DNA of 64,000 nucleotides from Elsinoe ampelina (GCA_010093995.1 ML992513.1:741203-805202); one strand, 5' to 3'; positions 1 to 60,109 are shown, numbered from the stretch's first letter. Made by a program: numbers and translations. The notes: generated by a model from the letters alone, not told the origin.

Positions 1-1595
1 CTCAGACTTCCGACACATACCTGCCAAAGGAGAAGGAAGATGGCGGCGTCGACCACCTCAACAACAGCTCGGGCAACACCTCCGATGAGGATCTCGGATT
101 CGACGACAAGGCCACCAAGCGCATGATCCGGAAGATGGATGTGCGCTTGCTCCCCTTCCTCGCCCTCCTGTATTTGCTTTCCTTCTTGGATCGCACCAAC
201 ATCGGAAACGCTCGTCTGGTCAATCTCGAAGCCGACTTGGGCATGAACCCCAGAGGTCTCGACTACAATAATGCTCTAGCCATCTTCTTCCCCTTCTACG
301 TAGCCGCAGAAATTCCCTCCAACATTATGATGAAGAGGACGAGGCCATCAATCTGGATCCCCACTATCATGGTAGGTTGAAACACTTCAGCCAGACTGAT
401 AATCGCACGTGTCTGACTCTTTTTCCAGGTTGCTTGGGGTGTCTGCTGCACTCTCATGGGTGTTGTAAAGAACTACGAAGGACTCATGGCCGCCCGTGCT
501 GCACTCGGTTTCGCCGAAGGTGGTCTCTTCCCCGGTGTGACATATTACATCACCATGTGGTACCGTCGCCACGAGTGCGGTCTGCGCATGGCCATCTTCT
601 TTTCTGCCGCCACCGCCGCCGGCGCTTTTGGAGGTCTTCTAGCCCGTGGTATCAGTGAGATGGACGGTCTTGGAGGACTCAACGGATGGGCCTGGATCTT
701 TATCCTCGAGGGTCTTCTAACACTCGCCGTCGCCATCCTCGCATTCTTCGTCATGAGCGACTACCCAGCGACTGCAAAGTTTTTGACCACCGACGAGAAA
801 AAGGAGATTGTCAGGCGCCTGAAACAGGACCGCAGCAGCTTGTCAGATGAGTTTGACATGAAGTTCTTCTGGGCCGCCATCAAGGACTGGAAGATCTGGT
901 GCCACATGTTCATCACCATCGGGTGAGTACTGCGATCTTCATTCTGAAATTGTTCCACTGACATTACTAGCGTCTACACCCCTCTCTACTCCATCTCCCT
1001 CTTCCTCCCCACCATCGTCCGAACCCTCGGCTACACCAACAACACCGCCCAACTCATGACCGTCCCCCCTTACGTCGTCGCCTGCTTCTTCACCCTCGGA
1101 GGCGGCTACCTCGCCGACAAGAAACAAACCCGCGGCCTCTTCATGATGTTCTTCGACCTCATGGCCATCCTCGGCTGGGCCATGCTCGTCGGCACCCGCA
1201 ACAACGTCGTCCGCTACATCGGCTGCTTCTTCGCCGTCAGCGGCATCTACCCCAACGTCCCCCAGGGTGTGGCCTGGAACGGCAACAACATCGGCGGCTC
1301 GCTCAAGCGCGGCGTCGGTATCGCCATGCACGTCGGCTTCGGCAACCTGGGTGGTGTGGTGGCTGCGTACATCTACTTGCCGAGGGACAGCCCGAATTTT
1401 GTGACTGGTCACTCGATCCTGCTGGGTTTCATCAGCATGTCGTTCTTGTTGAGTGCGTTCATGACTACGTATCTCAGGAGGGAGAATGCGCGCAGGGATC
1501 GCGAGTATAAGAGGCCGGAAGAGTACACTGAAGAGGAGAGAATGTTGGAGAAGGACAAGGGTGACCATGCTACCTTTTTCAGGTACACGGTCTAG
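1..1595 (+). CDS. MFS transporter, Dal5/Tna1 (anion:cation symporter) family; probably 5'-truncated by the window edge; introns 372-428 and 923-970
   Basis: Motifs FLDRTNIGNA, GFAEGGLFPG and GWAWIFILEG. GT-AG introns join the track ORFs 123..380, 456..926 and 1056..1595 into one frame. Confidence 0.9.
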
Positions 1596-14805: not shown

Positions 14806-15955
14806 CTTGCAAACCAGTGAAAGAGTGACTGGGGTGAGAATGAATGAATGGATGAAGGAAGAAGAAGCGACAAACCAACGTCCATGTATACTGATACAGA
14901 CCTAAGCTGAGGGAGGACGAACATGTTTGACTTTGCACAACCGACATTGACGGGGCCGGCGCCCTACAACGTCCCTCCTCCACCACTGTCAGCCAACGAT
15001 AGCAGCCCTGTACCCTCGTATACAAAGAAGCACCAGGCGCGAAAAGGTAAAAAGGATGTCAATGTCGATGTGAAACTGATGGTCGGTCAGGGTTGAGGAA
15101 GAACAACCACGCTAAGCTCAGCCAAGACGTTTCATGTCCCTTCGGATGCCTCGAAATGAAATGACACCAAGTCCAAGCTTCCACAAGAGTTTCCACAAGA
15201 TCTTTCATGTTCATAAGGATGAGTGCTTATCCATCGGGCGGCTTAGTCGATGTTCTCTGAAGAAGAATGCGAGCCACAGGGCCTTGCAGCTCTGATGCCA
15301 TGAGCTTTGTCATCACAAAATCGCATGGACAACCTTGATCTCCAGCGTGAGCTGGGTCACACCCAACACTGCGCTGAGCCTCCGAAACACCGCTCATATG
15401 GTTGTAACCCTAGATGCCAAGTGGCGCGTCACATGATCAGCGCACTCCGAACCAGCGGCTTGAGGTTTGAAAGTAGTCCAGCACACGACGAACTCCCAAC
15501 TATATCAACACGTCGGCCGTTGCAGCAGTCTCCGGTCGTCCTTTGAATTTCGTAAGCAGGTGCGGTGGAGCTTCAGAGGATATACGGTTGCAGATAGGGC
15601 CCGTCTTCTTCGACACATTTGACCGGTTTTTTGGGCCTAAATAGGAAATTCTGCTAGATAGCCGACGCAAAGGCCGACCGGACAAACCCTTGGCAAACAA
15701 AAGACCAGCTAAGGCGACGCTATCTCTAGACTATAGCGTGGTTCGCGAACTCCTCCTGACATTGAAAAAACCAGGATTGAAGAAGACGGCCCCATAGATC
15801 AGAGCTATATTCACATGGACTTGAGAGAGGTCGGGAATTAGGATCAAGATTAGGTTACTATGAATCTGCAACGGTAAGGCAGTTCATTGGTCTGGGATCA
15901 AGCGTAGTCGATCATGAAATCTTCTCTCGTCTCACATCACTCTTGTGGTGCTGGC

Positions 15956-16939
15956 TTATGCGAGTCCATCGAGCAGTCCTCCGACACCGGTTGCGCTGGG
16001 TGTAGCAGATAAGGACGCTGATGTCGTGGTGACTGACTCCAAACTGGTGGTGATGGTGATGCTGCTGCTGCTGGCCAGGGCGCTGACTGAGCTGGCAGAC
16101 TCGCTAACGCTGCTCAATGTGATGCTTGTAATTGAGGCGGTGGTAGTTGTGCTGCCGCTGATGCTGCTACCGCTGCTGCTGGTCGAAAGGAGTCCGCCGA
16201 GGAGATCCTCCGAGCTGACGCTGGAGCTCGAGACAGTGCCGGTGCTGGAGACCGAGCCGGTGCTGGTGAAAGAGCCGGTGCTGGGAAGAACGCTCAACAG
16301 AGTGATGGAGCTGCTGTGGGATGAAGTGATCGAGGAGTTGAAGAAGCTGCTCAGGACGCTAGTAGTCGTGGGAAGAGTGCCATTCAAAGACAAAGTGACG
16401 GATGCAGTGCTGTTACTCAGCATCGACGAGGTCGAGGACGCCATGGTGATGGTCGCGACAGAGGAGCTGCTAGGACGAGGCGTGGCGCTACTGGTGGAGT
16501 TGGTCTTTGCGAAGCACTTGCATGCATTGTACACGGAGCGGACGTTGATCTTCTCAAATGGAGAGTCGGCCCTCCATTTGGCCGTGTTCCAGTATTTGCA
16601 GAACTCGGATGTCTTCTTGGCCTCCTTCTGGAGTGCCTTCTTCTGGGCACTGCTACACTTGGGAGCAGCTCCTGGATTTGTGACCGGGCTAGCTGCCTTG
16701 GTGGACTGCTTCTTTTTGGTGATGCAGGTGCATGCCTTGGAGAATTGTGCTCGTGTGAGAGCATTGACCGGAGATTTGGTTTGCTTATAATCGAGGTACC
16801 AATTGCAGAAGTCCTTTGGTACGTTGAAGGCCTTCTTGACGGTGGCTACCTGTGTTTGATTGCATGACTGCTTGGGAGCCGCGAGGACAGCAGAAAAGAA
16901 AAGAGCAAGTAGGAGAACAACACTAGAGAGACGAGACAT
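15956..16939 (-). CDS. Secreted protein A: two Cys4 Lys-rich repeats plus a Ser/Thr-rich tail (mucin-like); paralog of 37153..38286
   Basis: Signal peptide MSRLSSVVLLLALFFSAVLA. Repeats C..FCNWY..ACTC and C..FCKYW..ACKC. ~180-aa S/T tail. Intronless. Confidence 0.85.
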   Translation of the reverse strand: MSRLSSVVLLLALFFSAVLAAPKQSCNQTQVATVKKAFNVPKDFCNWYLDYKQTKSPVNALTRAQFSKACTCITKKKQSTKAASPVTNPGAAPKCSSAQKKALQKEAKKTSEFCKYWNTAKWRADSPFEKINVRSVYNACKCFAKTNSTSSATPRPSSSSVATITMASSTSSMLSNSTASVTLSLNGTLPTTTSVLSSFFNSSITSSHSSSITLLSVLPSTGSFTSTGSVSSTGTVSSSSVSSEDLLGGLLSTSSSGSSISGSTTTTASITSITLSSVSESASSVSALASSSSITITTSLESVTTTSASLSATPSATGVGGLLDGLA

Positions 16940-17678: not shown

Positions 17679-19199
17679 CTACTCGTTGCCATGTGTGGGA
17701 GAGAAGCCCAGCTCCTGGAATAACTTTGCGGCTCCATGCTTGCGGACGTAAGCGATTTCCTCGTCATCTGTGAATTTCTCGACCGGCTTCAGCTCTGCGT
17801 TGTGCCAGACGAGCTGACAGTCTTGATCTTTGTTCTTCCCGCAGAGCAGCTCGTACGAGCGTACTGTCCCGAATTGGTCCAAGAAAGCTCCCTCACCACC
17901 CCAACCGGTATGCTTCCAGAAGCTAGGTCCGCTGATCGCAGTGCCTAAAAGTGTCGAGTTGAATGTGAAAGATCCATAATCAAACAATCCCCCGACAGCC
18001 TCCCCGATATCCTCGTCGACTTTGGCCTTCTCGAAACCCACGAGGTCCGGACCAACGAGAAGATTACCAACCGGAACGACACCAAGACGTACCACCTTGA
18101 CAAGTTTGTCGAAGAGGCCTGGCACGATCTTGTTGTCGTCATCGAGTCCGTAAACTGGACCATGACCGTAAAGACCACCTCGACCGGATCGGGTCAAAGC
18201 ATAAATCATTTGAAATAGAGCATTCTTCTGTGCATTGCCCCAAGATTTGGTTTTGCCATATGCGAAGTAGATGAAGGATACACCGGTCCGTTGCAGCGTA
18301 CGAAGGATGAGAGGATCAATCTCAACATCATCCTCAGCAATGATCCAGACCACTTGCCAGTCACGAACGTCATGTTGTTCTTCTGAATTGACATCAAGCA
18401 TGCGCTTCTCCTGTTGCGACATCCAGGAGCGAATTGCACGTCCGTGGCGTCGGAAGTACTGAGGACGGAATTCGGCCGACTTTCCCTCCGGAGTGGTCGC
18501 TGTGGTCAGGTAGATTGTCGGCCTGCCAGTGTCCAGTCCGAACAGAGACCAGGCCATCATCTCATCGAGGTGATTGGCCGTCCGCCCGATGAGCTTCAGC
18601 GCTTGCTCACCATTAAGATGCTGTCGGGCGCAGTATATATCCAGAATTGCGAGGCGCACAAATTCGTTGACGTCGACCGTATCGGAAGAGGGATGTACAT
18701 GACTCTCAAGCGGTCGGGGCGGGAAACCAAAGCTGGCGCTTGATTGAGGAGTTGGCTTGTAATACGGAACGATTGCCTGACAGTTGCACAGTGTGCAGAG
18801 ATCTCTCGGCCTTGCGGACTCGAGATGGAGAGGAAATTGAGCTGGACTCGCAATTTCTGCGTCATAAAGTTGTTCGAAGAAAGGGCTGGTCGCATTCGTG
18901 ATATTTCCAGTTCGTGACCTTGACAACACCAAAGCTACCAGCAGGGAAATGATCAAGCAACCCACAGTGAGTGTCCGCCATGAGCTGGCAATGGTGGCGT
19001 AGGCATCATCCACGTCGAAGTTGTTGGCTATCGTGCGAATTTTCTCCAATAGTCTGCTCCTGGTAACCCTCCGCCGGCTGTTGCGGTCGTCGAGGTGCAT
19101 CTTTTCTGTGTCGCCTTCTTCATCCAGTAGTGCTAGATCACTTCCAGTATCACTTTCGTCTCGGTAGCGGTTCATGATTTCCGTGTCGCTTTCGACCAT
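17679..19199 (-). CDS. GT43-like glycosyltransferase (glucuronosyl/xylosyltransferase fold), type II membrane protein; intronless; alternative ATG at 19226
   Basis: Ordered GT43 motifs PTIY, WIIAED, NAQKNAL, GPVYGLDDDN, VVPVG, DYGSFTFN, GGEGAFL, LVWHN. N-terminal TM LTVGCLIISLLVALVL. Confidence 0.8.
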   Translation of the reverse strand: MVESDTEIMNRYRDESDTGSDLALLDEEGDTEKMHLDDRNSRRRVTRSRLLEKIRTIANNFDVDDAYATIASSWRTLTVGCLIISLLVALVLSRSRTGNITNATSPFFEQLYDAEIASPAQFPLHLESARPRDLCTLCNCQAIVPYYKPTPQSSASFGFPPRPLESHVHPSSDTVDVNEFVRLAILDIYCARQHLNGEQALKLIGRTANHLDEMMAWSLFGLDTGRPTIYLTTATTPEGKSAEFRPQYFRRHGRAIRSWMSQQEKRMLDVNSEEQHDVRDWQVVWIIAEDDVEIDPLILRTLQRTGVSFIYFAYGKTKSWGNAQKNALFQMIYALTRSGRGGLYGHGPVYGLDDDNKIVPGLFDKLVKVVRLGVVPVGNLLVGPDLVGFEKAKVDEDIGEAVGGLFDYGSFTFNSTLLGTAISGPSFWKHTGWGGEGAFLDQFGTVRSYELLCGKNKDQDCQLVWHNAELKPVEKFTDDEEIAYVRKHGAAKLFQELGFSPTHGNE

Positions 19200-20481
19200 C
19201 CTAATGATAGCAAAGGCTTTTTCCATACACAAATAGCAAGTGACCTGCTTTGACGACCTCAATCACTTCCATGCAAACTGGGAAGTGGTTTGTTGTTGGC
19301 AGGCAATCTGCAACCGGGGACCAAGCACGGCGGATACAACAGCGAAAATGGAAAGAAATTGGTTATGTACCAATTGCGGTTCAGACGTAGCCAGGCCCCA
19401 CGCCGACAACGGCTGATAATGCAGGTGCAGTGCTGTACTGTGACCACCGCTAAGCGTTCATGCACGAAGCTTCACTGGCTGGGGGGGATCATTCGTTCCA
19501 GGGGACCGAGAAAAGGGAGAAGCCATGACCTCGATCAATTTGCAAGGCGTCGTGGCTGTCGTGCAACGTTTCTGCAGATATTGACCACAACGGTCCCGCC
19601 CTTTCGAGGGCATCTTGGCAGATCATTGCCTCCTGAAATCAATCATGACAGAATCTGGTTCACAGACTCGCCTTGGGCGGCTGTGGGCTATCAATGGCCA
19701 TAAGGTGGTTCGAGGGCGTTCGCTGCAGCTGTGGTGCAGATCAGACCGGCTCTGGTCCAGAAAGACGTTGGTCGAGGCTCGATACGGTGACGTGGCGCGA
19801 GAGACATGCTGACGGGAGCAGACAATATTTTCAGCCATGTGGCAGATGTTACGAAAGTAAGGGATGCAGAAAGAGCTTGATGGGGGGTCCGTCGAAGCTT
19901 GATAGGCGCGCTGACTCATCCTTCATGGCGACACCACGCCACCTGTCTTTACCTCGCTTCATCTCCACCGCTGCTACTATATCAAACAGGATGATGTTGA
20001 TGCCATTTGCGAGCACAAATCGGACTCCCAGGATGACTGCATATACAAACGAAGCATTGATTCCCCTGCAAAGGGGCAGCTTTGCGGTGTGTCTACTGCG
20101 TAACGGCGGCCAAGTTACCCCTTATTAGTCGAATCTTCGACGCCGTTTAGAGCCTCACTACTAAGTTTAAGCACTCAGTCCACCTCGATTTGGTTGATTG
20201 GTTTAGCTCGGATCCTTTCGCCTGCATGCGCAAGCGTTCAGCTGAACATGTTCCAGCCAAAGGGGCAAGAAATTCGAGCTGCCATTTGATGTGCAACGTC
20301 TTCTCCCTTCTCGACTCCGGACGCTCTCCTCCCCCGTGAGGCTTGCAGATGGTTCAGTAGACGGCACCATGGGCGTCCCATAACGGTCTGATCGGTGAGC
20401 TTTGCTTAGTCTCTCACTTGATCCATCTTCTCCCACAATTGTCTTCTGCTTCAGAGAAAATCATAGTCGGTTTCAGTCATC

Positions 20482-22740
20482 ATGTTGACTTCAGTACAAC
20501 ACCGTCGGGTCGTCGTTGGGACAATCTCGTTCCTCATTCTGGTCACGATCCTTTTCTTGACGCTGCCAGCCTCATCAGTCGGCCGGGTCCCCAAGCTGCT
20601 GAGATACAAGCACACCAGCGATGCATCCACATCCGTCGATGTCAGTAATCAGGATCTGAGCATGCCCACGGGCTCCTTCACGTACGACAATATTGCTCAG
20701 ATAACGAGTGATTTAGAAGTAGCGAGAGATCCATGCGAAGGGCTTGCTCTACCAGAAGGAGGGAAGAATGCGTCAGGGACAGAGGGGACACTGGTACTTG
20801 TGACTGGCGGTGCGGGATTCATTGGCTCGAATCTTGTGGACAGATTGCTCCATCTGGGATACAAGGTCAGGATATTCGACAATCTCTACACTGGGTTTAT
20901 CCGCAATGTCCCGCTGGAGCATGAAAACGTCGAATTCTTCTTTGGCGATATTCTAAACAGGACGGCTCTCCAAGAAGCTATCAAGGGTGTCGACTACGTC
21001 TTTCATCTTGCCGCCATGAGCAAGGTCGTCCCGTCGCTGAAGAATCCCGACATGGCCCGTTTCTGCCTAGAAAGCAATGCTCTGGGGTCGTGGAACGTAC
21101 TGGAAGAAGCACGTCTTGCCGGCCACATCAAGAAAGTCATCTATGCGGCGTCATCGACATATTATGGTAATGCACCTCCGCCTCATAAGGAGACTATGGC
21201 TCCGGATTTCCTCACTCCCTACTCGAGCAGTAAATACGAAGGGGAGTTGCAGATGCAGACTTTTGACCAACTCTTTGGTGTGCCTACCGTTAGCACCCGC
21301 TTCTTTATGGTGTATGGTCCTAGACAACCGACCACTGGAGCCTACGCTATCGTTACCGGCGTGTTTGCCAAGGAAGCCGCAGACGGCAAGCCACTCACTA
21401 TCGAGGGAGACGGGAGTCACTCTCGTGACTTTATCCACGTCAGTGATATCGTGGAAGGCCTCATCCTCGCTCAGCAGTCTCCGACGCTTCACGGAGAAGT
21501 CATCAACCTAGGTACCGGCTCGTCGTACTCTGTGCAGGATCTGGCCGATCTGGTCTCTAAGGATCAGGTCAAGCTTCCACCACGCGAGCACGACTTGGTG
21601 CGCACTTTGGCCGACACTTGCAAGATGAAGAAATTGCTACAATACCAGCCCAAGACGGATTTCATCAAAGAAATGAGCTACATGGTGAAGGCGACGAAAG
21701 AAGGCAATGTGTTTACACAAGATTGGTTTACCATATCAAGAGCGTTGTCTGCGCCGCACTTGCTTCCCGCTGGCAGTCCGGAATTCGGATGGCCAAAGGA
21801 GCAGAACGATCTTGACGCACTCCTCGTGAGCTTGCAGCACGTCAAGGAGAAGATCCATGCTGGAGAGGAAGACAACCAACGCCTGGTCACCGTGCTGCCT
21901 CTCACACTTCATGGACTTGACGATACTGATTTGCCTGCTCTCCGAGAACTGCTCTTGAACACGGTGTATACTCTGGTTCGCTACGGAAATGTTGTTCGAT
22001 ATATCGTCGCAGCGACCAATGACAAAGCGCTGGCGATTTGCACCGAGCTCAACCTACCTTGCCTGGATGTCCGGGATAATCTCAAATCGAGCCCTGCTCT
22101 TGTGGACGCCCTGCTAAGCCGTGGATATGACGTGCATTACGCAGTCATCGGTAACAGCTATGCATCATCTGTGCCTGCCTTCTTGTACAGCAACAGCAAC
22201 GAAGAGATCTCCAGCTCGGACGTCATCCGGGTACAACAGCAAGGTGACTTCTTTGTGAGATTGACCGACGAGACTCGGCACGCTTTCTCGTCCATGGACA
22301 AGAATGGTCCAACCTCTCATTTATCCATGCTGCGAGGCAAATCGTGGCCAAACGCAGAACTCAGTCAAGCCCGTTTCGAGGCGGCACACCTTTGCGACGC
22401 ATCAGTCAAGCAGACTTCTTCGTACACAGATGACGATGGAGCGGGCTACTCATCCCCTCCAGGCGGTCACAAGGCCGCGCCGGGTTCGAAAGTACCACAC
22501 CAAGTCAGGGCCTCGCACAAAGTCTGCGATACTATCGGCCACCGTCTCTTTGTCACGCCTGGTTGTGCTGACAAGCCAGTGGTCGTGGCGAATGCGACTG
22601 TCGAGGCACTCGTCAAAGCGGGTGCGTTTCATCTCAGCCAATGTCATGACCCAGAACACTGCGATGTTCAGCAGATCCTTCCATCGAGGTGGATTCAGAA
22701 GACGGCGGATCTTGCCACGTCTGGAGATCTTTGTTCTTAG
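20482..22740 (+). CDS. Membrane-anchored NAD-dependent nucleotide-sugar epimerase/dehydratase (extended SDR) fused to a degenerate nucleotide-diphospho-sugar-transferase-like domain; intronless
   Basis: N-terminal TM, then VLVTGGAGFIGSNL, VFHLAA, AASSTYYG, YSSSK, VYGPRQ, GDGSHSRDFIHV. C-terminal YIVAATNDKALAIC..LPC..LLSRGYDV. Confidence 0.88.
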   Translation: MLTSVQHRRVVVGTISFLILVTILFLTLPASSVGRVPKLLRYKHTSDASTSVDVSNQDLSMPTGSFTYDNIAQITSDLEVARDPCEGLALPEGGKNASGTEGTLVLVTGGAGFIGSNLVDRLLHLGYKVRIFDNLYTGFIRNVPLEHENVEFFFGDILNRTALQEAIKGVDYVFHLAAMSKVVPSLKNPDMARFCLESNALGSWNVLEEARLAGHIKKVIYAASSTYYGNAPPPHKETMAPDFLTPYSSSKYEGELQMQTFDQLFGVPTVSTRFFMVYGPRQPTTGAYAIVTGVFAKEAADGKPLTIEGDGSHSRDFIHVSDIVEGLILAQQSPTLHGEVINLGTGSSYSVQDLADLVSKDQVKLPPREHDLVRTLADTCKMKKLLQYQPKTDFIKEMSYMVKATKEGNVFTQDWFTISRALSAPHLLPAGSPEFGWPKEQNDLDALLVSLQHVKEKIHAGEEDNQRLVTVLPLTLHGLDDTDLPALRELLLNTVYTLVRYGNVVRYIVAATNDKALAICTELNLPCLDVRDNLKSSPALVDALLSRGYDVHYAVIGNSYASSVPAFLYSNSNEEISSSDVIRVQQQGDFFVRLTDETRHAFSSMDKNGPTSHLSMLRGKSWPNAELSQARFEAAHLCDASVKQTSSYTDDDGAGYSSPPGGHKAAPGSKVPHQVRASHKVCDTIGHRLFVTPGCADKPVVVANATVEALVKAGAFHLSQCHDPEHCDVQQILPSRWIQKTADLATSGDLCS

Positions 22741-22825
22741 ATGTCGTTTGCGATAGTTTTTGCATGTATTTAGCACCTGTTTAATCATGGACAACTCACG
22801 ACTTTAATTTTGTACTAGTTCCATT

Positions 22826-22966
22826 TGTTGTAATAGAGGACTAGTACAGCTTCTCTAGTACTAAATAACTAGTACTAATGAGTTAGCACACGTATAGTAG
22901 ATAATCGGTTATTGTAACTTACTAAATAAATAACATATCTCTCGATCCGATTTGCTAATTATAATA
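22826..22966 (+). repeat. 5' LTR (141 bp)
   Basis: Direct repeat of 28795-28935 at constant offset 5969. Begins TGTTG. Confidence 0.95.
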
Positions 22967-25900
22967 CCTAAAGGTACTATAAAGATTTTATAAAGTACTA
23001 CTATTAATATACTATTACTATAGAGTAAAGAGTAAGTACTATTAGTACTATACTAGATAAGTTTAAGCTTTCTCTATACTATATTAAAACTATATTTATT
23101 ATAGGAATAAAGACTACTAAATAGTTAAAGAGCTAAAGATCTAGCCTTAACTATAAGAAGAGTCTTAAAGAGATAATAGACTCTTTTAGAATATAAAAGC
23201 CTCTATATAATTAAAGAACTAGTCTAAACTCTATCTATAAGGTAGTTAGCTATATTAAAGATTAATATACTTAATATACTTATTATATCTACTCTAATAT
23301 AGATTACTTTAAGTAGTACCTTAAGAAAGTACTAAAGAGTTAAAGTAAGAGAAATAATAAAGATAAGTTAAATAATAAGAATACTAAGGCTAAAGGTAGA
23401 AGTAATAAGTTAAAGACTAAGAAAGTTAAAGATTAAGCTATTATTAAAGAATCTAAAGAGCCTACTAAGATAGAGAAATTTAATAAGTAATCTAATAGTA
23501 ATATTAATATTATTAGATTAATTTATACTAAGGTAGCTATATCTATATTATTATTATTATTATTATTAATATATAGCTAGAATAAAGTAATCTATAACTC
23601 TAGTATATTAAGGTACTTTATTAAGGATAAGTTATAGTTCTTAATAATTAAGATATATAAAGAAGTTTTTAAATTTAAATAAGCTATTAGTATAAAGAAG
23701 CTACTTAATATAGAAATTAGTAAAGTTAGGCTTATTCTAACTAATAGTAAAGAAAAGAAGATAATTATTAAACTTAATAGTTATATATACTTACTATTAT
23801 TAACTAATACTCTTATATCTAATCTTTAGAATAAAGAAGAACTTAGTATTCCTATAGTTAGTAAATCCTTATTAAAGGATAGAAAGGAAGTTAGCCTTAT
23901 TAAACATTTTAAAAGAGTTAAGTAGTTAAAGAACTTTAAGATTTATAAGCCTTAGGATATAAGCTAACTACTTTTAAAGCTAAAACTATAAAAACTATAG
24001 GCTATAAGAGTAAATCTAGCTATAGTAACTATATAAAGACTAATATTAGAGAGATAGTACTAGAGACTAGGCTATATTAGTAATATAGTTCTTTCCCTTA
24101 CTAAAAGCCTAGCTATTAGACTAGAAGAACTTTAAATATTAGATCTTAATTACTATAAACTATATACTATATTAAAAGTATAAAGAGTAGTATTAAGGAA
24201 ACTAAGAGATCTACTAAAGTACTTACTAGATAAGCTTTATCTAGACCTTATTAGTCCTATTAAACTATAGTTAAGTAAAGGCTATAAGTACTTTCTCTTT
24301 ACTATATATAGTAAAAGTAAGTATAAGTTTATTACTATTCTCTTTCTAAAGAGTAATACTCTAGTAGCTATTAAAGCTATTTATACTAAGAACTATATAG
24401 CTTATAATAAACTATTATTTATCTTTATCTTTAATAGAGATAGTAAATTTAAGAATTATAAGCTAGTAATAGCTATTTAACTTAATAGTTAGAGATAGAA
24501 TATCTCTATACCTAATACTTAATATTAAAATAGAGAGTCTAAGGCTACTAATAAAGCTATTATCCTTAGAATAAGATATATCTTTATTAATTATAAAGCA
24601 CTCTTTAAACTCTAGTACTTATTAGTAGAGTTTATAATCTATATTAGTAATAGAATTACCTATACTAAAACTAAGAAAATCCCTATATAAGAATTAAGGA
24701 AAGATCTTCTTAATAATAATAAACTAGTCTTATTAATATATATTAAACACTTTAGCTATAAAGCCTATATCTATAATTAATATATTTCTAAATTATATAA
24801 GTTTTAAGCTAGAGTACTACTTAGCTAGTATATTAGAATATAACTTAACTCTAAGACTAATTACTTTATCTAGATACTTTACTAGTACTATACTTAATAA
24901 GCCTAGAAGAGAAAGATCTTAATATTACTTTATATTACCTTTAATAAAGGTATAGTCTATAGAGATTAAGTAATATAGCTTATTAAGTAACTATATATTC
25001 TATAAGTATAACTACCTAAAGCTTTATAGTTTTAGAGAGAGTAGATATTTAGTAGTAATTATTATAAAAGCTATAGCTAGAACTAACTACCCTTTAGTTA
25101 TAAGAATCTATAAACTACTTAGGCTAAATAGCTAATATCTAACTACTCTATAACTCCTAGATATAAATAACTATCTACCTCTATTAAAGAGTAAGAGAAG
25201 TATCTATAATACTATTACTTTTAAATAGATACTTAACTTATTAATAAATAAAAGAAGTAACTTATTAAGTAACTTAATAATAATAATTATAAAGGTAAAG
25301 ACCTTATAATACTACTACTTAAAGTTATTAGTAAACTATATTCTACCTTTAATTTAATATTTAATATTAATTAGCTACTAATATATACTTAAAATAAGAA
25401 TATTAACTTCCTTATTATACTCTTTAATATATAGTCTTTAATAGATAAAAGAAAGAAATTACTTTTACTATAAGAAACTATTAGAAAGTCTCTTAGAATA
25501 TACTACTAGATTAATTATAAGAGACTTAATAATAATAAGATTATTAGATCTATAGCTATTAACTTTAAGCTAGACCTATAAATAGTAAGAGATATACTAT
25601 TCTCTCCTAAAGAGTATTACTAGTAAGCTATAATAGAAGTAAAGTAGAATACTCTAAAAAATACTAAAACCTTTTTAATTATTAAGAAATTATAGATACT
25701 AAGAGGTATTAGGCTAATAATAAGTAAATAAGTCTTTAAGATTAAGAGGCTTACTAATAGTAAAGTTAAGAGATATAAGGCTTACTAGACTATAAAAGAC
25801 TTTACCTAAAGGTAAAGTATTAACTTTATTAGAATCTTTATACTAATACTAAGAGCTAAAACTAGAAGAGTAATTCTTATATATACTCTTTACTATAACT

Positions 25901-28794
25901 AGGTTATTATAATAGTAAATACTATTACTATATTCCTTAGACTAGATATTAATATTAAAAATTATATCTCTTACTTAGAAGATATACTAATCTCTAATAA
26001 GTAGAATAAGCTTATTATTCTTATAAAAGGCTTATATAGACTTAAGTAAGCTATAGCTCTTTAGTATAACTCTATAGTTAAAGCACTTCTATTACTTAGC
26101 TTTATTAAGTTATATAGTAATATTTATCTCTTTATTAATAAGTACTATATAGTTCTTATATATATTAATAATTTTAAAATTATTATTACTAAGTAGAAGT
26201 ATACTAATAAGCTAGTTAAAGACTTCTATCTTAAGTTTCTAATAAAGATTATAAACTTGAATCTCTTCCTTAGTATTTAACTTTATAAAACTAAGAATAT
26301 AATTAAGATTAAGTAATTATACTACTTAGAGGAAAAGCTTAAGGGCTATAATCTTTACTAAGTAAGAACTATAAAGTATCTTATTAATTAACTCTATAAA
26401 CTAACTAATAGCTAAGTTAATACTTAGAACTATAAGATATTTAATAGAATTATTAGTAAATTATAGTATCTAGCTAATAATATAAAGCTAGATATTAGCT
26501 ATACTACTAATTACTTAGCTAAATTCCTTTAGAATCTAACTATAGCTTATATAGTTATAGCTAAGTAAATCTAGAGATATATTAATAGAATAATTATAAA
26601 GAGTTTAACCTTTAAGAAGGTTAATAGCCTATTAGTTAATACTATTAAGGCCTACTCTAATTTAGACTTTATTAGTAATAGATTAACTATAAGATCTATA
26701 TCTAGTATAATTATCTATATACTTAGTATATTAGTTATTTAGAAATTTAGACTATAGAAGATTATTATACTATTAAGTACTAAGGCTAAGTACTTTACCT
26801 TAACTAAGACTTATAAAGAGAGTAATTAGTTAAGAAATCTTATTATTAAACTTAAGCTACTTACTAATATCTACCTTAGACTAACTATAGTCTTTATTAA
26901 TAATAAGTTAGCTATTAAACTTATAAGAGATTATACTAATTTAAGAAGATTAAAGTATATTAACTTAAGGAACTACTACTATAGAGAGTAGTATAAACTT
27001 AGAGTAATTAAGCTTAAGTATATTAATATAACTTAGTAATTAGCTAATATACTTACTAAGTCTAAGTCTCTTAATAAGATTCTTAACTAATTAGTAAAGG
27101 CTAATTACCTAGTATAACTTTATACTATATACTTACTTAGATTTTATTTATATTACTATCCTAAGTATATTATTTATACTACTACTACTTATTAAGCTAT
27201 TTTATTTATCTAAAGTCTAAAGTAGACTACTTTATTATTAAAAAGAGAGAAAGAAAAAGCTATTATAACTTTATTACTAGCTACTTATACCTAAGCTATA
27301 TCTACTACTTAATACTATTACTATCTCTATTATCTACTATCCTATCTTACTAATACTTATTTAATAAGCTTACCTTTTCTTCTATAGAGAGCTCTTTAAG
27401 CTAGATTTAGAACTACTTCTTTTCTTTCCTTTACTCTTACTACTACTAGACTTAGTTATTAGTAGAGTTCCTTTAGGAGTTAGAGATAAGCTTATATTAG
27501 ATATACTTCTTAGGATACCTTCCTAATTCTTAAGCTCTAAACCCTACCTATATATCTATAGACTAGGTACTTTACTACTCTTAGCTAATCTTCTTTATAA
27601 GTTATTATAGTTATTTATATAGTCTCTAAACTTCTTAGTATACCTAGCCTAAGTATTAGAATCTTATAGCTTAAATCTAGTAAGAGCTAGAATAGGAATA
27701 AAGACCTTATCCTTAGTATACTTTAGCTTTAGAATATTAATATCCCTAATTAGATCTATATTAATTTTTCTAGTTATACTAGAAGTAAATCTAGTAGTAG
27801 AAGAGTAATAACTATAAGAGGGACTAGAAAGAGTAGAAGAGAGACTAGTTAGAGTTAAGGGACTAGTAGTAGTTAATAACTTAGCTACTTTCCTTAGTAT
27901 AATATTCTAGCTATTAAGAAAGATATCTTTAGAGGCCTAAGACTAGAAGTTATACTTAAAGTACTTATTAATATAGATATAGTTAATATAAGCTCTACTA
28001 TAGACCTATTAGAAAGTTATATAAGAGTTAAAGGTCTTTAAGAAATAAGTACTATTAGTATTCTTAATGTTATAGTAGAAAGGTTAAGTATAAATAGTTC
28101 TACCTCTAGTATAATATATTAAGATTACTAGAAGATAGTTAGTATTTACTAATATTAAGGTTATTATATTAATAGTCTTATTAGCTATAATAGTATTAAC
28201 TAGAACTACTATATTATAGATATTATCTCTATTAGTAAATACTTTAACTTAAGTAGTCTAGACTAGTCTAGTAAAGTAATAAAGAGTACTAAACTTCTTT
28301 AATAAGTAAAAGAAGAAAAAAATACTAATAATACTATTTATTATAATTAGAAAGTTATTTAAAGCTATAGCTCTCTATATTAAGTTAATAATAATAATAA
28401 TCTAAGCCTTAGATAGAATTACTCTATTACTAGCTATAGATATATAAGAGAGCTAAGTATAATTAAAGAAGGTTATTACTATATTAGTAGTAATTAACTA
28501 ATATAAGTATAATAAAGAAAGGAGAAATTATAAAGAAGCTAGCTAGATACTTATATCTCCTTTATTAAGATTTATAAGCTAGTTTATTTATATAGAATAA
28601 TAGCTACCTAGCTATTATTAATAGTTACTATTATTACTAGTAATTATAAGCTAGACTAATAGTAAATTCTTACTAATAATTAGCTAGTACTAATAATTAT
28701 AAGTAATTATAATAAGATAAAGTAATAACCTAATTACTTTACTTATATATAATAGACAGTTCTTTAGCTTTAATAATCTATACTAGAGGAGGAG

Positions 28795-28935
28795 TATTAT
28801 AATAGAGGACTAGTATAGCTTCTCTAGTACTAAAGAACTAGTACTAATAAGTTAGCACACGTATAGTAGATAATTGGTTATTATAACTCACTAAATGAAT
28901 TACACGTCTCTCGATCCGATTTGCCAATTACAACA
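28795..28935 (+). repeat. 3' LTR (141 bp)
   Basis: Direct repeat of 22826-22966. Ends CAACA, followed by TSD CCATT. Confidence 0.95.
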
Positions 28936-29379
28936 CCATTTACCCCAAATCGCGGGACAGAAAGGCCGTTTGCGCCGTCGTTTAATCAATTTGGTGTTAT
29001 TATGCAGAGGGGTGAAAGAGCCGCCTCAATTATTAATGGCAGGGTTTATAGAAGCCCTCCATGTCCTTCTCCCATACTTCCAACAAGCTTTGCAAGACCT
29101 CACCTTGCTTGCTCGCATCGGGAATCGCTGCTTGATGAGACGGTCGAAATCAAGCCTTTGTGTCAAGACTCGCAACACCATTCAGGTGCTTCAGCAAGAT
29201 CTACATCGGTGGAGGGAATCACCGACTTTGCCGTTTTAGCCTTTCATAAATTATCCTCGGCATCTGTTTAATCCTGGCATAACTGTGCACCCACGGCATC
29301 TCGTTGGAGAAGCCTTCAAAACACCTCTGCCAGCCATGTAGGTATTCTGTCTTCTTTGTGCACATCATCTATTTTCATA

Positions 29380-58754: not shown

Positions 58755-60109
58755 TCACTGCTCATGCTCCTCCTCCTCCTCGTGTTCCTCATGCTCCTCG
58801 TGTTCCTCGACTCGTGCACTTTTGACTGCTGCATCGCTTGTGGCATTTTGTTCCGACCCGGGCGGATACAGAAGATCCTGATACTGCCAGTCGAGAACCT
58901 GCTGGTGGTGGGAAATCCAGCTGTGGTCGAGTTCCTCTTTCGCCTTCCTCACAGCGCGAGGTCCAACAAGAGCTCCTAGGCACGCTTCCTTGAGATGAGA
59001 CTTGAGACCTCCCCAGTAATGCTTGACGAATTTGCCACCAGCGGTCTCCTCGAATGGCATTTCGATGATGTTGTCCGCGTATTCATACCTGATGAAGTTG
59101 GAAAGGCCTGATTGCTCACGAAAGTGGTTTGACTTCCAAATCGAACAATTATGAAACTTGACGTCCGTAGGGCAGAGCGACCAGTCTCGCAGCAGATCTT
59201 CAGTGACCGGCGTTTTTTGGGTGATAACGAACCCGGAGTTGAGGTTAGCGTTACCCCTAATGTCTGTAGACTCGACAGGGTCTTTCCCAGCTGCGAGAGC
59301 AGTATTTTCATCGATCCCCCAATGACTGAACAAGGTTACTAGAGGGATCCGCATGTCGGTGAAAATGGTGTCAGCATCGAGAACAAGCACGAACTGATAT
59401 TTGTCCATCATTGTCAGACGGAATTGCTCATAGACTTTTGCCCAGGTGAAATGAAGACCTTCCATCTTGGGGATTGGGACCTGGGAATGTATGTAGGTGT
59501 ATCCGTGCAGTTTGGCGTAGAGTTGATGGTTAAGGAACCCCCAGTGTGAATCTTGCATGTCGTCGATCTGGGTATTCCAAGGATCCCAATGCCGGGTATC
59601 GACGTCGACAATGGCTATACGCTCTTTCAAGGGCGGATATCGTTTCAGGGTAGCAGGATCTAAGCCATACTCGGTGTAGTAGTCGACTGGAGGGAATGAC
59701 CTCAACATATCGAGCGCACTGTCAATTGGCCGGGGATGTCCTTCTCCATTCGCTGATGTATGAGATATGACAGTACTCGGGTGGCCACCTCCACTTTCAG
59801 ACGTGCTGGGCGTACTGCTTGTCGTGACCCGCTGCGTGAGACTGTAAAATCAGCTCTGATCATGACATGGATCGTTCAGCTGACTCACTCATGTGCGACG
59901 TCCGATCTGCCGAGACTAAAGCCCATTGTGAATGCAACCAGGATCACCGCAGCTGATATGACACCAATGCTGGCTGGCCGCGATAGCAAATCCGTCCATG
60001 TCTTTCTTGGTTGCAGGAATTGTGGGAGATCTTCGTACGAGTTGTCGGGGTCGCTTGAGCGCCTCTTTTCATGGCCGGTGAGGCGGGAATATGCCTGCTC
60101 AGGACTCAT
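58755..60109 (-). CDS. GT34-like / nucleotide-diphospho-sugar transferase, type II membrane; 2 exons
   Basis: TM IGVISAAVILVAFTMGFSLG, NHQLYAKLHGYTY, TWAKV, VLDADTIF (DxD), LNSGFVI, EQSG. C-terminal EEH repeats. Confidence 0.82.

Follow-up and report, generated by a model that had tools for sequence, protein, structure and literature searches.

A putatively anchored nucleotide-sugar SDR fused to a GT77-derived domain and its linked GT43 gene in Elsinoe ampelina

Introduction

What does a fungus do with an apparently membrane-anchored nucleotide-sugar enzyme that ends in a glycosyltransferase-like domain lacking the DxD motif? This question is raised by a gene of Elsinoe ampelina located in the window, that is, the whole 64,000-nucleotide stretch of DNA that was analysed (GCA_010093995.1, ML992513.1:741203-805202). 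An initial annotation, made from the sequence alone, proposed a type II lumenal generator of donor sugars, bacterial-looking and possibly acquired horizontally. We conclude that the gene belongs to a module that is real, conserved and uncharacterised, and that is built of known families. The linked GT43 gene, which the initial annotation had overlooked, is the strongest clue to function.

Gene structure and putative expression

The SDR-fusion gene occupies positions 20482..22740 on the plus strand and encodes 752 residues (P0001), consisting of an anchor, a stem, an extended SDR and a degenerate GT77 tail. It had been described as intronless, and indeed it is one open frame whose coding region is spanned by gap-free contigs. 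These contigs were assembled from four public runs that we only guess to be RNA. The contigs of X1, X2 and X3 span the coding region without gaps, and those of X6 span it in three gap-free pieces. In all four runs the contigs break at about 19.8-20.0 kb, between the SDR-fusion gene and the GT43 gene, and stop short of the downstream repeat; one of the four has a GT..AG joint in another gene. This pattern resembles two divergent, unspliced transcripts, which is a hint of putative expression. Among runs recorded as RNA, the region was not found in any.

GC3 of the SDR-fusion gene is 0.59, and the 14 other measured ORFs of the window range from 0.55 to 0.79. Downstream of the gene lies an AT-rich block, which proved to be a RIP-mutated repeat of the dispersed kind and does not belong to the module. 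The closest named homologues of the 752-residue protein are from Elsinoe. A paralogue on contig C5 is 69% identical to P0001 and differs very little from a protein of E. batatas.

Putative membrane anchor and conserved cysteines

P0001 has a single hydrophobic segment (Kyte-Doolittle window 7-36, peak 2.72), which corresponds to an N-terminal transmembrane or signal-anchor segment at about residues 10-28 (20509..20565, plus strand) with Arg8-Arg9 ahead of it. All six tested homologues that possess an N-terminus show a similar peak. The anchor was called by hydropathy, not by a dedicated topology predictor, and a cleaved signal peptide is compatible with it. The stem follows (20566..20787, plus strand) and contains D83-P84-C85, invariant in an alignment of 61 proteins.

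The family has 11 conserved Cys. C85 in the stem and C380 in the SDR are invariant (61/61 aligned), both are missing from a bacterial relative (L089), and they may pair with each other. C638, C682, C695, C721, C727 and C751, all in the C-terminal tail, are kept in at least 90% of the 61. The anchor, the conserved Cys including the C85/C380 couple absent from the bacterial relative, and the fusions to a transporter and transferases described below argue for a lumenal orientation, as expected of a type II membrane protein of the ER or Golgi. Thus the architecture that had been proposed agrees with the one N-terminal hydrophobic segment and the conserved Cys.

A head-to-head GT43 gene

A divergent GT43 gene (17679..19226, minus strand) lies head-to-head with the SDR-fusion gene, 1,255 bp upstream of it. 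The spacer (19227..20481) is a candidate shared promoter region, and a promoter function is possible. The GT43 gene encodes a predicted type II membrane protein of 515 residues with a transmembrane segment at about 79-106. PF03360 matches it with 32.7 bits (cut-off 27), and the protein has no second match in the genome. WIIAED, D362-D363-D364-N365, E445 and H475 are recognisable, D362-N365 and E445 being invariant in the family (51/51). When a profile of the family was compared with PDB, the only matches were human glucuronyltransferases (E 1e-11), and DDDN, Glu and W-H are retained. A 2015 survey placed fungal GT43 only in basidiomycete rusts and yeasts, and by its eight strict motifs the neighbour has two (motifs 2 and 4), under the threshold of three, with several of the remaining ones near misses (PMC4449007, partial text).

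Are the two genes linked in other genomes? By a proxy of shared contig size, rather than by seen adjacency, 24 of the 57 non-own GT43 homologues have exactly the same longest-contig size as 24 of the 62 non-own SDR-fusion homologues, and 33 of the 57 have no match. Eleven of these 24 pairs are on contigs of 20.5 kb or less. In Diploschistes the pair carries consecutive locus tags (LQ340_005025 and _005026); from the proxy we infer linkage beyond this case. The GT43 and SDR gene trees also give many common groups by eye.

In chytrids the domains of both proteins are found on one chain. Gaertneriomyces P0080 consists of the SDR, a DxD-less tail and a GT43 part (39.6 bits, cut-off 27) that is 31% identical to the window GT43 over 236 residues. 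Cladochytrium P0242 carries an N-terminal TPT-family nucleotide-sugar transporter ahead of the SDR, tail and GT43, and is 44% identical to P0001 over 668 columns. Rhizoclosmatium P0245 is a similar fusion whose partial GT43 scores 22 bits, under the cut-off. Among other relatives, P0084 has a GT90 in GT43's place after the dead domain, and in P0079 a second, intact GT77 follows it. These fusions suggest that where the tail is dead, an intact transferase of another kind usually accompanies it. The exceptions are Irineochytrium P0087 and the C5 paralogue, which has a GT34-like gene as neighbour instead of GT43. Neither P0087 nor the alveolate members have a fused GT43. A metagenome scan gave matches to the SDR part only (33-45% identity), and a full-length fungal locus was not found there. 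The predicted complex of GT43 (115-495) with the tail (400-752) scored 0.00; alignments were not used and the fold of the partner is uncertain, so that the score is evidence neither way.

The SDR domain and its pocket

The extended SDR covers residues 103-405 (20788..21696, plus strand), as judged from PF01370 and alignments. PF01370 matches residues 105-344 (E 4e-50, 170.8 bits). The GGAGFIG NAD-binding motif is found together with S224 and Y247xxxK251, so the SDR is as complete as had been claimed. S224 aligns with the Ser that is mutated to Ala in the 6WJ9 variant. The domain is further marked by S180-K181-V182, S224-S225-T226, M276, I290 and T375, and its pocket residues are invariant among the 61 aligned proteins. 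The unusual RFFMVYG motif was verified: the codon at 21307..21309 (plus strand) encodes Met276, where RYFNVYG normally has Asn. This Met is a family trait, since it is present in 119 of 123 eukaryotic relatives, the other four giving no motif match, and an equivalent is present in none of 169 prokaryotic or metagenome ORFs.

Which enzyme group does this SDR belong to? The top solved sequence matches are 6WJB (which we take to be PelX), 6PMH, 4ZRM, 6DNT and WbpP (E 4e-49 to 3e-39). This upholds the initial annotation in reading the SDR as WbpP-like, and in separating it from the cytosolic Gal10/Uge type, as it is unrelated to the GalE-type enzymes of the genome. The WbpP/PelX pocket fingerprint, mapped through the 6DNT alignment and PMC12820599 (partial text), was not matched: S180-K181-V182, M276, I290 and T375 stand for G/A102-S103-V104, N195, A209 and S306. 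With Met276 at the place of Asn195 and Ile290 at that of Ala209, WbpP-type (UDP-GlcNAc) activity looks doubtful; the Ser103 position is the invariant Lys181. The GalE/UGE fingerprint was not matched either. The positions of Lys84, Asn179 and Tyr299 (the Tyr/Cys gatekeeper) are Ser180, Met276 and Thr375, and the galE model scored 120.6 bits, below its cut-off of 262.3. The Glu that canonical UXS has two places after the catalytic Thr/Ser is absent, Thr226 of S224-S225-T226 being there, and a UXS-like probe is 31-32% identical to the SDR and falls far outside its clade.

S224-S225-T226 does match the hydroxyl triple of UDP-GlcA 4-epimerase, T126-S127-S128, which binds the carboxylate in the Bacillus enzyme (PMC7984243, partial text). 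This match is not diagnostic, since Ser-Ser-x is also found in WbpP-type enzymes. According to the same text, the Thr178 contact of the Bacillus enzyme is made by the main chain, and Met would therefore be tolerated at that position. Counted by offset from Thr178/Met276 in an alignment assumed to be gap-free, the epimerase Arg185 position is Pro283. Loss of the Arg185 contact turns a UDP-GlcA 4-epimerase into a primitive xylose synthase (PMC12338863, partial text); the invariant Lys181 might substitute for Arg185. In summary, the SDR pocket is not a full fit to any characterised group.

The GT77-derived tail

On its own the tail of about 290 residues has no Pfam match, and PF03407 matches weakly in three of seven tail sequences (best E 0.03). 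Atlas placed residues 462-752 beside PF03407 clusters (0.95). A profile of seven tails gave 118 matches among 1.84 billion proteins; 70 of the 118 were scanned, and most of the long distant ones were PF03407 proteins, several of which share the SDR-plus-tail layout but have their transferase intact. In addition, hhalign aligned the tail with the Allomyces SDR+GT77 protein P0095 at 98.3% probability, with D-T-D of P0095 sitting on V555-I556-G557 (22144-22152, plus strand). From the Atlas placement, the profile matches and hhalign, we conclude that the tail descends from GT77. Its GT-A-like core would lie at about residues 466-625 (21877..22356, plus strand), and the remainder (22357..22737, plus strand) is a Cys-rich part whose fold was not resolved. 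Both the GT77 likeness and the missing DxD had been pointed out before, and both hold.

The loss of DxD can be followed through the family. Of 10 Blastocladiomycota proteins, 6 retain it (three are degenerate and one unread). The four readable chytrid tails lack it and have D-T-N, T-T-N, S-P-D and S-I-S, and it is absent from 29/29 ascomycete-group proteins with a readable motif (29 of 63). This series from intact DxD through D-T-N to V-I-G would trace how a glycosyltransferase that is part of a fusion became inactive.

Structure prediction gave a mixed answer. The tail model has a mean pLDDT of 47 and a beta/alpha core of about 60-85, and the full-length prediction (pLDDT 38.7) was unusable. 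GT-A similarity of the tail had been expected, and GT-A folds, along with nucleotidyltransferase folds, do make up most of the top structural rows for this weak model; the agreement is weak, as the best Z of 6.8 (rmsd 3.6, 132 aligned) is within the range common for unrelated folds and Foldseek with the same model found no match at E<=0.001. The tail profile gave only a chance match against PDB sequences.

Distribution and origin

When residues 172-420 were used as the query, 144 matches of 413-1316 residues were obtained. The best 120 of the 144, which were listed, include Pezizomycotina of four classes, four chytrid genera, Allomyces, Blastocladiella and the alveolates Polarella, Perkinsus and Effrenium, and no named basidiomycete, mucoromycete or yeast is among these 120. 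Among the 14 ascomycete homologues with a named source, eight come from genera of ostropomycetid lichens or of fungi closely related to these.

In the SDR part, identity to the Elsinoe protein is 67-70% for chytrids and 59-61% for Blastocladiomycota, and the best prokaryote (Lachnotalea) is 48% identical among 169 ORFs, a sample limited by the search pattern. The SDR tree was built from 72 sequences, after 13 redundant eukaryotic and 16 lower-scoring prokaryotic ones had been dropped from the 101 prepared. In this quick LG+G4 tree, with SH-aLRT as its only support and with long-branch warnings, values were 100 for the eukaryotic clade, 93 for fungi, 97 for chytrids plus Pezizomycotina and 98 for Pezizomycotina. 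The domain-wise phylogeny that had been recommended thus sets the SDR in a eukaryotic clade apart from the fungus's own GalE-type enzymes.

Did this fungal lineage recently capture a bacterial gene and fuse it to a fungal GT77? We consider this very improbable. The gene has no intron, its Atlas neighbours are bacterial, and in the tree the eukaryotic clade is surrounded by prokaryotic sequences and well separated from the GalE-type and rhamnose-pathway SDRs that the fungus has of its own, all of which would suit a capture; set against this are the far higher identity of chytrids, which have the same fusion, the strongly supported eukaryotic clade and its chytrid plus Pezizomycotina group, and the ordinary GC3. 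Because of the chytrid identity, the eukaryotic clade and the lack of the Met in prokaryotes, the suggestion of recent bacterial transfer is not supported. An ancient prokaryotic root of the SDR remains a plausible reading. The GT43 tree was of the same quick LG+G4 kind as the SDR tree, with SH-aLRT only and long-branch warnings, and both unite Elsinoe with Exophiala (98-100) and not with Pseudovirgaria, the other dothideomycete. This hints at movement of the gene pair between fungi, or else at hidden paralogy.

Substrate and proposed mechanism

The reading that we favour, and hold to be probable, is that a lumenal donor-making SDR supplies GT43 and that the tail is a non-catalytic relic. The donor-generating role put forward by the initial annotation accords with the sequence and its context. 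In the proposed mechanism, the type II protein would reside in the ER or Golgi, where its lumenal SDR, with tightly bound NAD+, would oxidise C4 of an imported UDP-sugar. The converted donor would then be released beside the enzyme that consumes it, the co-inherited GT43. As for the C-terminal domain, it would be what is left of a GT77 transferase; this transferase would have worked in the ancestral fusion, and Allomyces still has it intact. Having lost its metal- and donor-binding motifs, the domain would be retained for structure, that is, for folding, dimerisation or holding GT43. A scaffold role of this kind may be supposed by analogy with IRX9.

What is the substrate? UDP-glucuronic acid is the most likely one, with a little better than an even chance, and the possible reactions can be ranked only roughly. 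Each single reaction is unlikely when taken alone. Decarboxylation to UDP-xylose comes first, followed by hexose or HexNAc 4-epimerisation and then by 4-epimerisation to UDP-galacturonic acid; UDP-xylose/arabinose epimerisation is improbable, and any other reaction even more so. A UDP-glucose-dehydrogenase-family gene adjoins three of the seven close prokaryotic relatives checked, although these dehydrogenases could act on UDP-GlcNAc. The Elsinoe genome has one UDP-glucose dehydrogenase, and three genome searches did not find a canonical UXS, subject to the completeness of the assembly. GT43 and GT90 include xylosyltransferases. GT77 does as well (PMC8778642, partial text). At one prokaryotic locus (L007) the SDR relative lies beside a canonical UXS and therefore probably does something else, which counts against decarboxylation. 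The uronic acid identified in lichens is reportedly all GlcA, which counts against GalA (PMC7164778, partial text).

On contig C5, a UGD gene, a transporter gene and the paralogue seemed to form a cluster. About 27 kb lies between them, with ceramidase, OTU, GH15, MFS and Med1 genes, and it is another contig, C66, that has the gene most similar to the chytrid transporter domain. The grouping is treated as loose or as chance.

Two alternatives concern the chemistry. In one, the SDR would be a PelX/WbpP-type 4-epimerase that acts in the lumen on UDP-hexose or UDP-HexNAc and gives Gal or GalNAc to other transferases, and GT43 would add GlcA from imported UDP-GlcA, as animal GlcAT does onto galactose; the two would share a pathway without the SDR making the donor of GT43. 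We regard this as unlikely, although it would explain why the best solved matches are the PelX/WbpP group and why human glucuronyltransferases are the only PDB matches of a GT43 that keeps DDDN, Glu and W-H. Thr375 also matches the small gatekeeper Ser306 of WbpP (PMC12820599, partial text). The change of Asn to Met, at one of the two residues that bind the 6-OH in GalE, and of Ala209 to Ile speak against it, as do the two GalE-type genes that the genome already has.

In the other, less likely still, the tail would remain active as an atypical or metal-independent transferase, or would bind the acceptor glycan, so that the protein is bifunctional as in Allomyces. Pezizomycotina have retained the whole tail, which is 38-58% identical among the six closest homologues, and Asp580 and Gly588-Asp589 are conserved; both would fit this. 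However, the motifs of intact relatives are all gone: DxD is replaced, a deletion has removed the W-x-K segment, and neither N-T-G nor D-Q is left. Conservation of the tail is centred on Cys, Pro, Trp, Gly (Gly557 is kept in at least 90% of the 61) and hydrophobic residues, whereas the SDR pocket is invariant. We infer that the tail is a non-catalytic relic, in line with the favoured reading of a donor-making SDR that supplies GT43.

A wider picture is more tentative, and on balance we would doubt it. It sees an assembly line of transporter, lumenal UDP-GlcA enzyme (a UDP-xylose synthase or GalA epimerase outside the known families), pseudo-GT77 scaffold and GT43. The line would be a single polypeptide in chytrids and would have been split into a head-to-head pair that survives in lichen fungi, black yeasts and Elsinoe and possibly moved among them. 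If true, its product would be a surface glycan with xylose or uronic acid of a kind that has yet to be isolated from ascomycetes.

Significance

With its two genes, the module may give access to glycans not known to be among the products of ascomycetes. Acidic lichen polysaccharides have been called "basically a black box", and no polysaccharide with glucuronic acid is reported to have been isolated from lecanoromycetes (PMC8355462 and PMC7164778, partial text). Culturable Elsinoe or Exophiala with the gene pair would open the question to knockout and sugar analysis. The Met/Lys-type SDR would add a specificity class to the nucleotide-sugar SDRs, one that ranges from fungi to dinoflagellates. 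In the literature searched, with most subscription journals outside it, no DxD-less ascomycete form, GT43 linkage or chytrid fusion was found.

Comparison with known systems

Plant GAE, UXE/MUR4 and membrane UXS and animal UXS1 are Golgi-lumenal type II SDRs. As predicted for the Elsinoe protein, plant GAE, UXE and UXS and animal UXS1 combine an anchor, a stem and an extended SDR that converts nucleotide sugars at the site of use. They differ in having no glycosyltransferase-derived tail, and in the Elsinoe protein the UXS Glu is Thr, Arg185 and Pro85 of GAE are Pro and Ser, and the Asn is Met. PelX, WbpP and WbgU (6WJB, 1SB8 and 6DNT) are the best solved sequence matches and share the YGPRQ...YA motifs and a small gatekeeper. 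These are soluble prokaryotic enzymes, however, and their Asn195, Ala209 and Ser103 are replaced by Met276, Ile290 and the invariant Lys181.

The joining of PF03407 to GDP_Man_Dehyd (PF16363) in early-diverging fungi has been mentioned in one sentence (PMC8778642, partial text). This two-domain architecture is identical, and the Allomyces proteins are clear homologues. The available text lists the architecture only, with no mention of GT43, whereas in ascomycetes the transferase motifs are gone and PF03407 no longer recognises the tail. As for the partner, the neighbour keeps WIIAED, DDDN, Glu and W-H of the GT43 systems, human GlcAT-I/P/S and plant IRX9/IRX14. That a protein of glycosyltransferase fold can serve a Golgi complex structurally has a precedent in IRX9 (PMC4132061, partial text). 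In Elsinoe the candidate pseudo-enzyme is the GT77-derived tail.

Paralogue and surroundings of the SDR gene

The genome contains a full-length paralogue of the main gene (window positions 20482-22740) on contig C5 (G000:C5:214540-216774, corresponding to L002:1498-3759, minus strand), which encodes a protein of 753 aa that is 69% identical to the main-gene product. This paralogue lies tail-to-tail with a gene for a GT34-like type II protein, which is 44% identical to the protein of window 58755-59708 (minus strand), a GT34/Nucleotid_trans-like transferase exon that has a DAD motif and whose Pfam matches are weak and below the cut-off.

Directly downstream of the GT43 gene, a secreted-looking protein is encoded at 15956-16939 (minus strand). 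It contains repeats rich in Cys and Lys, ends in a long Ser/Thr tail and gave no Pfam match; a 225-base GT..AG joint was observed in one run at 15872-16098. This protein is a possible glycosylation target. On the 3' side of the main gene, some 60-100 bases separate the stop codon from the start of an AT-rich block (22800-29000; GC 0.21-0.26, TpA/ApT about 1.8). The block carries a RIP signature and has 54 matches in the genome, most of them with 82-90% identity.

Other candidate nucleotide-sugar clusters

Separately from the paralogue, contig C5 carries a compact cluster (G000:C5:180600-188200; L191, L192), in which the single UDP-glucose dehydrogenase gene of the genome is head-to-head with a TPT-family transporter gene. 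Beyond this pair come two further ORFs, one PLOD-type and GT-like, the other unassigned and hydrophobic near its N-terminus, and the region is a candidate glucuronosylation cluster. Another locus (G000:C15:306012-308055; L003) combines a UDP-glucose 4,6-dehydratase-like gene, a divergent reductase-like gene and an adjoining TPT transporter gene; judged by motifs, it resembles a UDP-rhamnose cluster.

Domain context of homologous SDRs

Among the matches listed, protist Met-type SDRs (P0258, P0261, P0269, P0274, P0279 and P0282) carry TPT and/or EamA transporter domains. Long membrane regions are present at the N-terminus of some copies from Allomyces. The gene models of Xylographa P0207 and P0223 (about 1250 aa) continue from the SDR and tail into a PF16862 domain (GH79 C-terminal). 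Either two models have been merged, or a glucuronidase-like gene lies next to the SDR-tail gene. The closest prokaryotic SDR found, from Lachnotalea (L089:2992-5188), belongs to a polyketide-like cluster, in which it immediately precedes a glycosyltransferase gene of the GT1/GT28 type.
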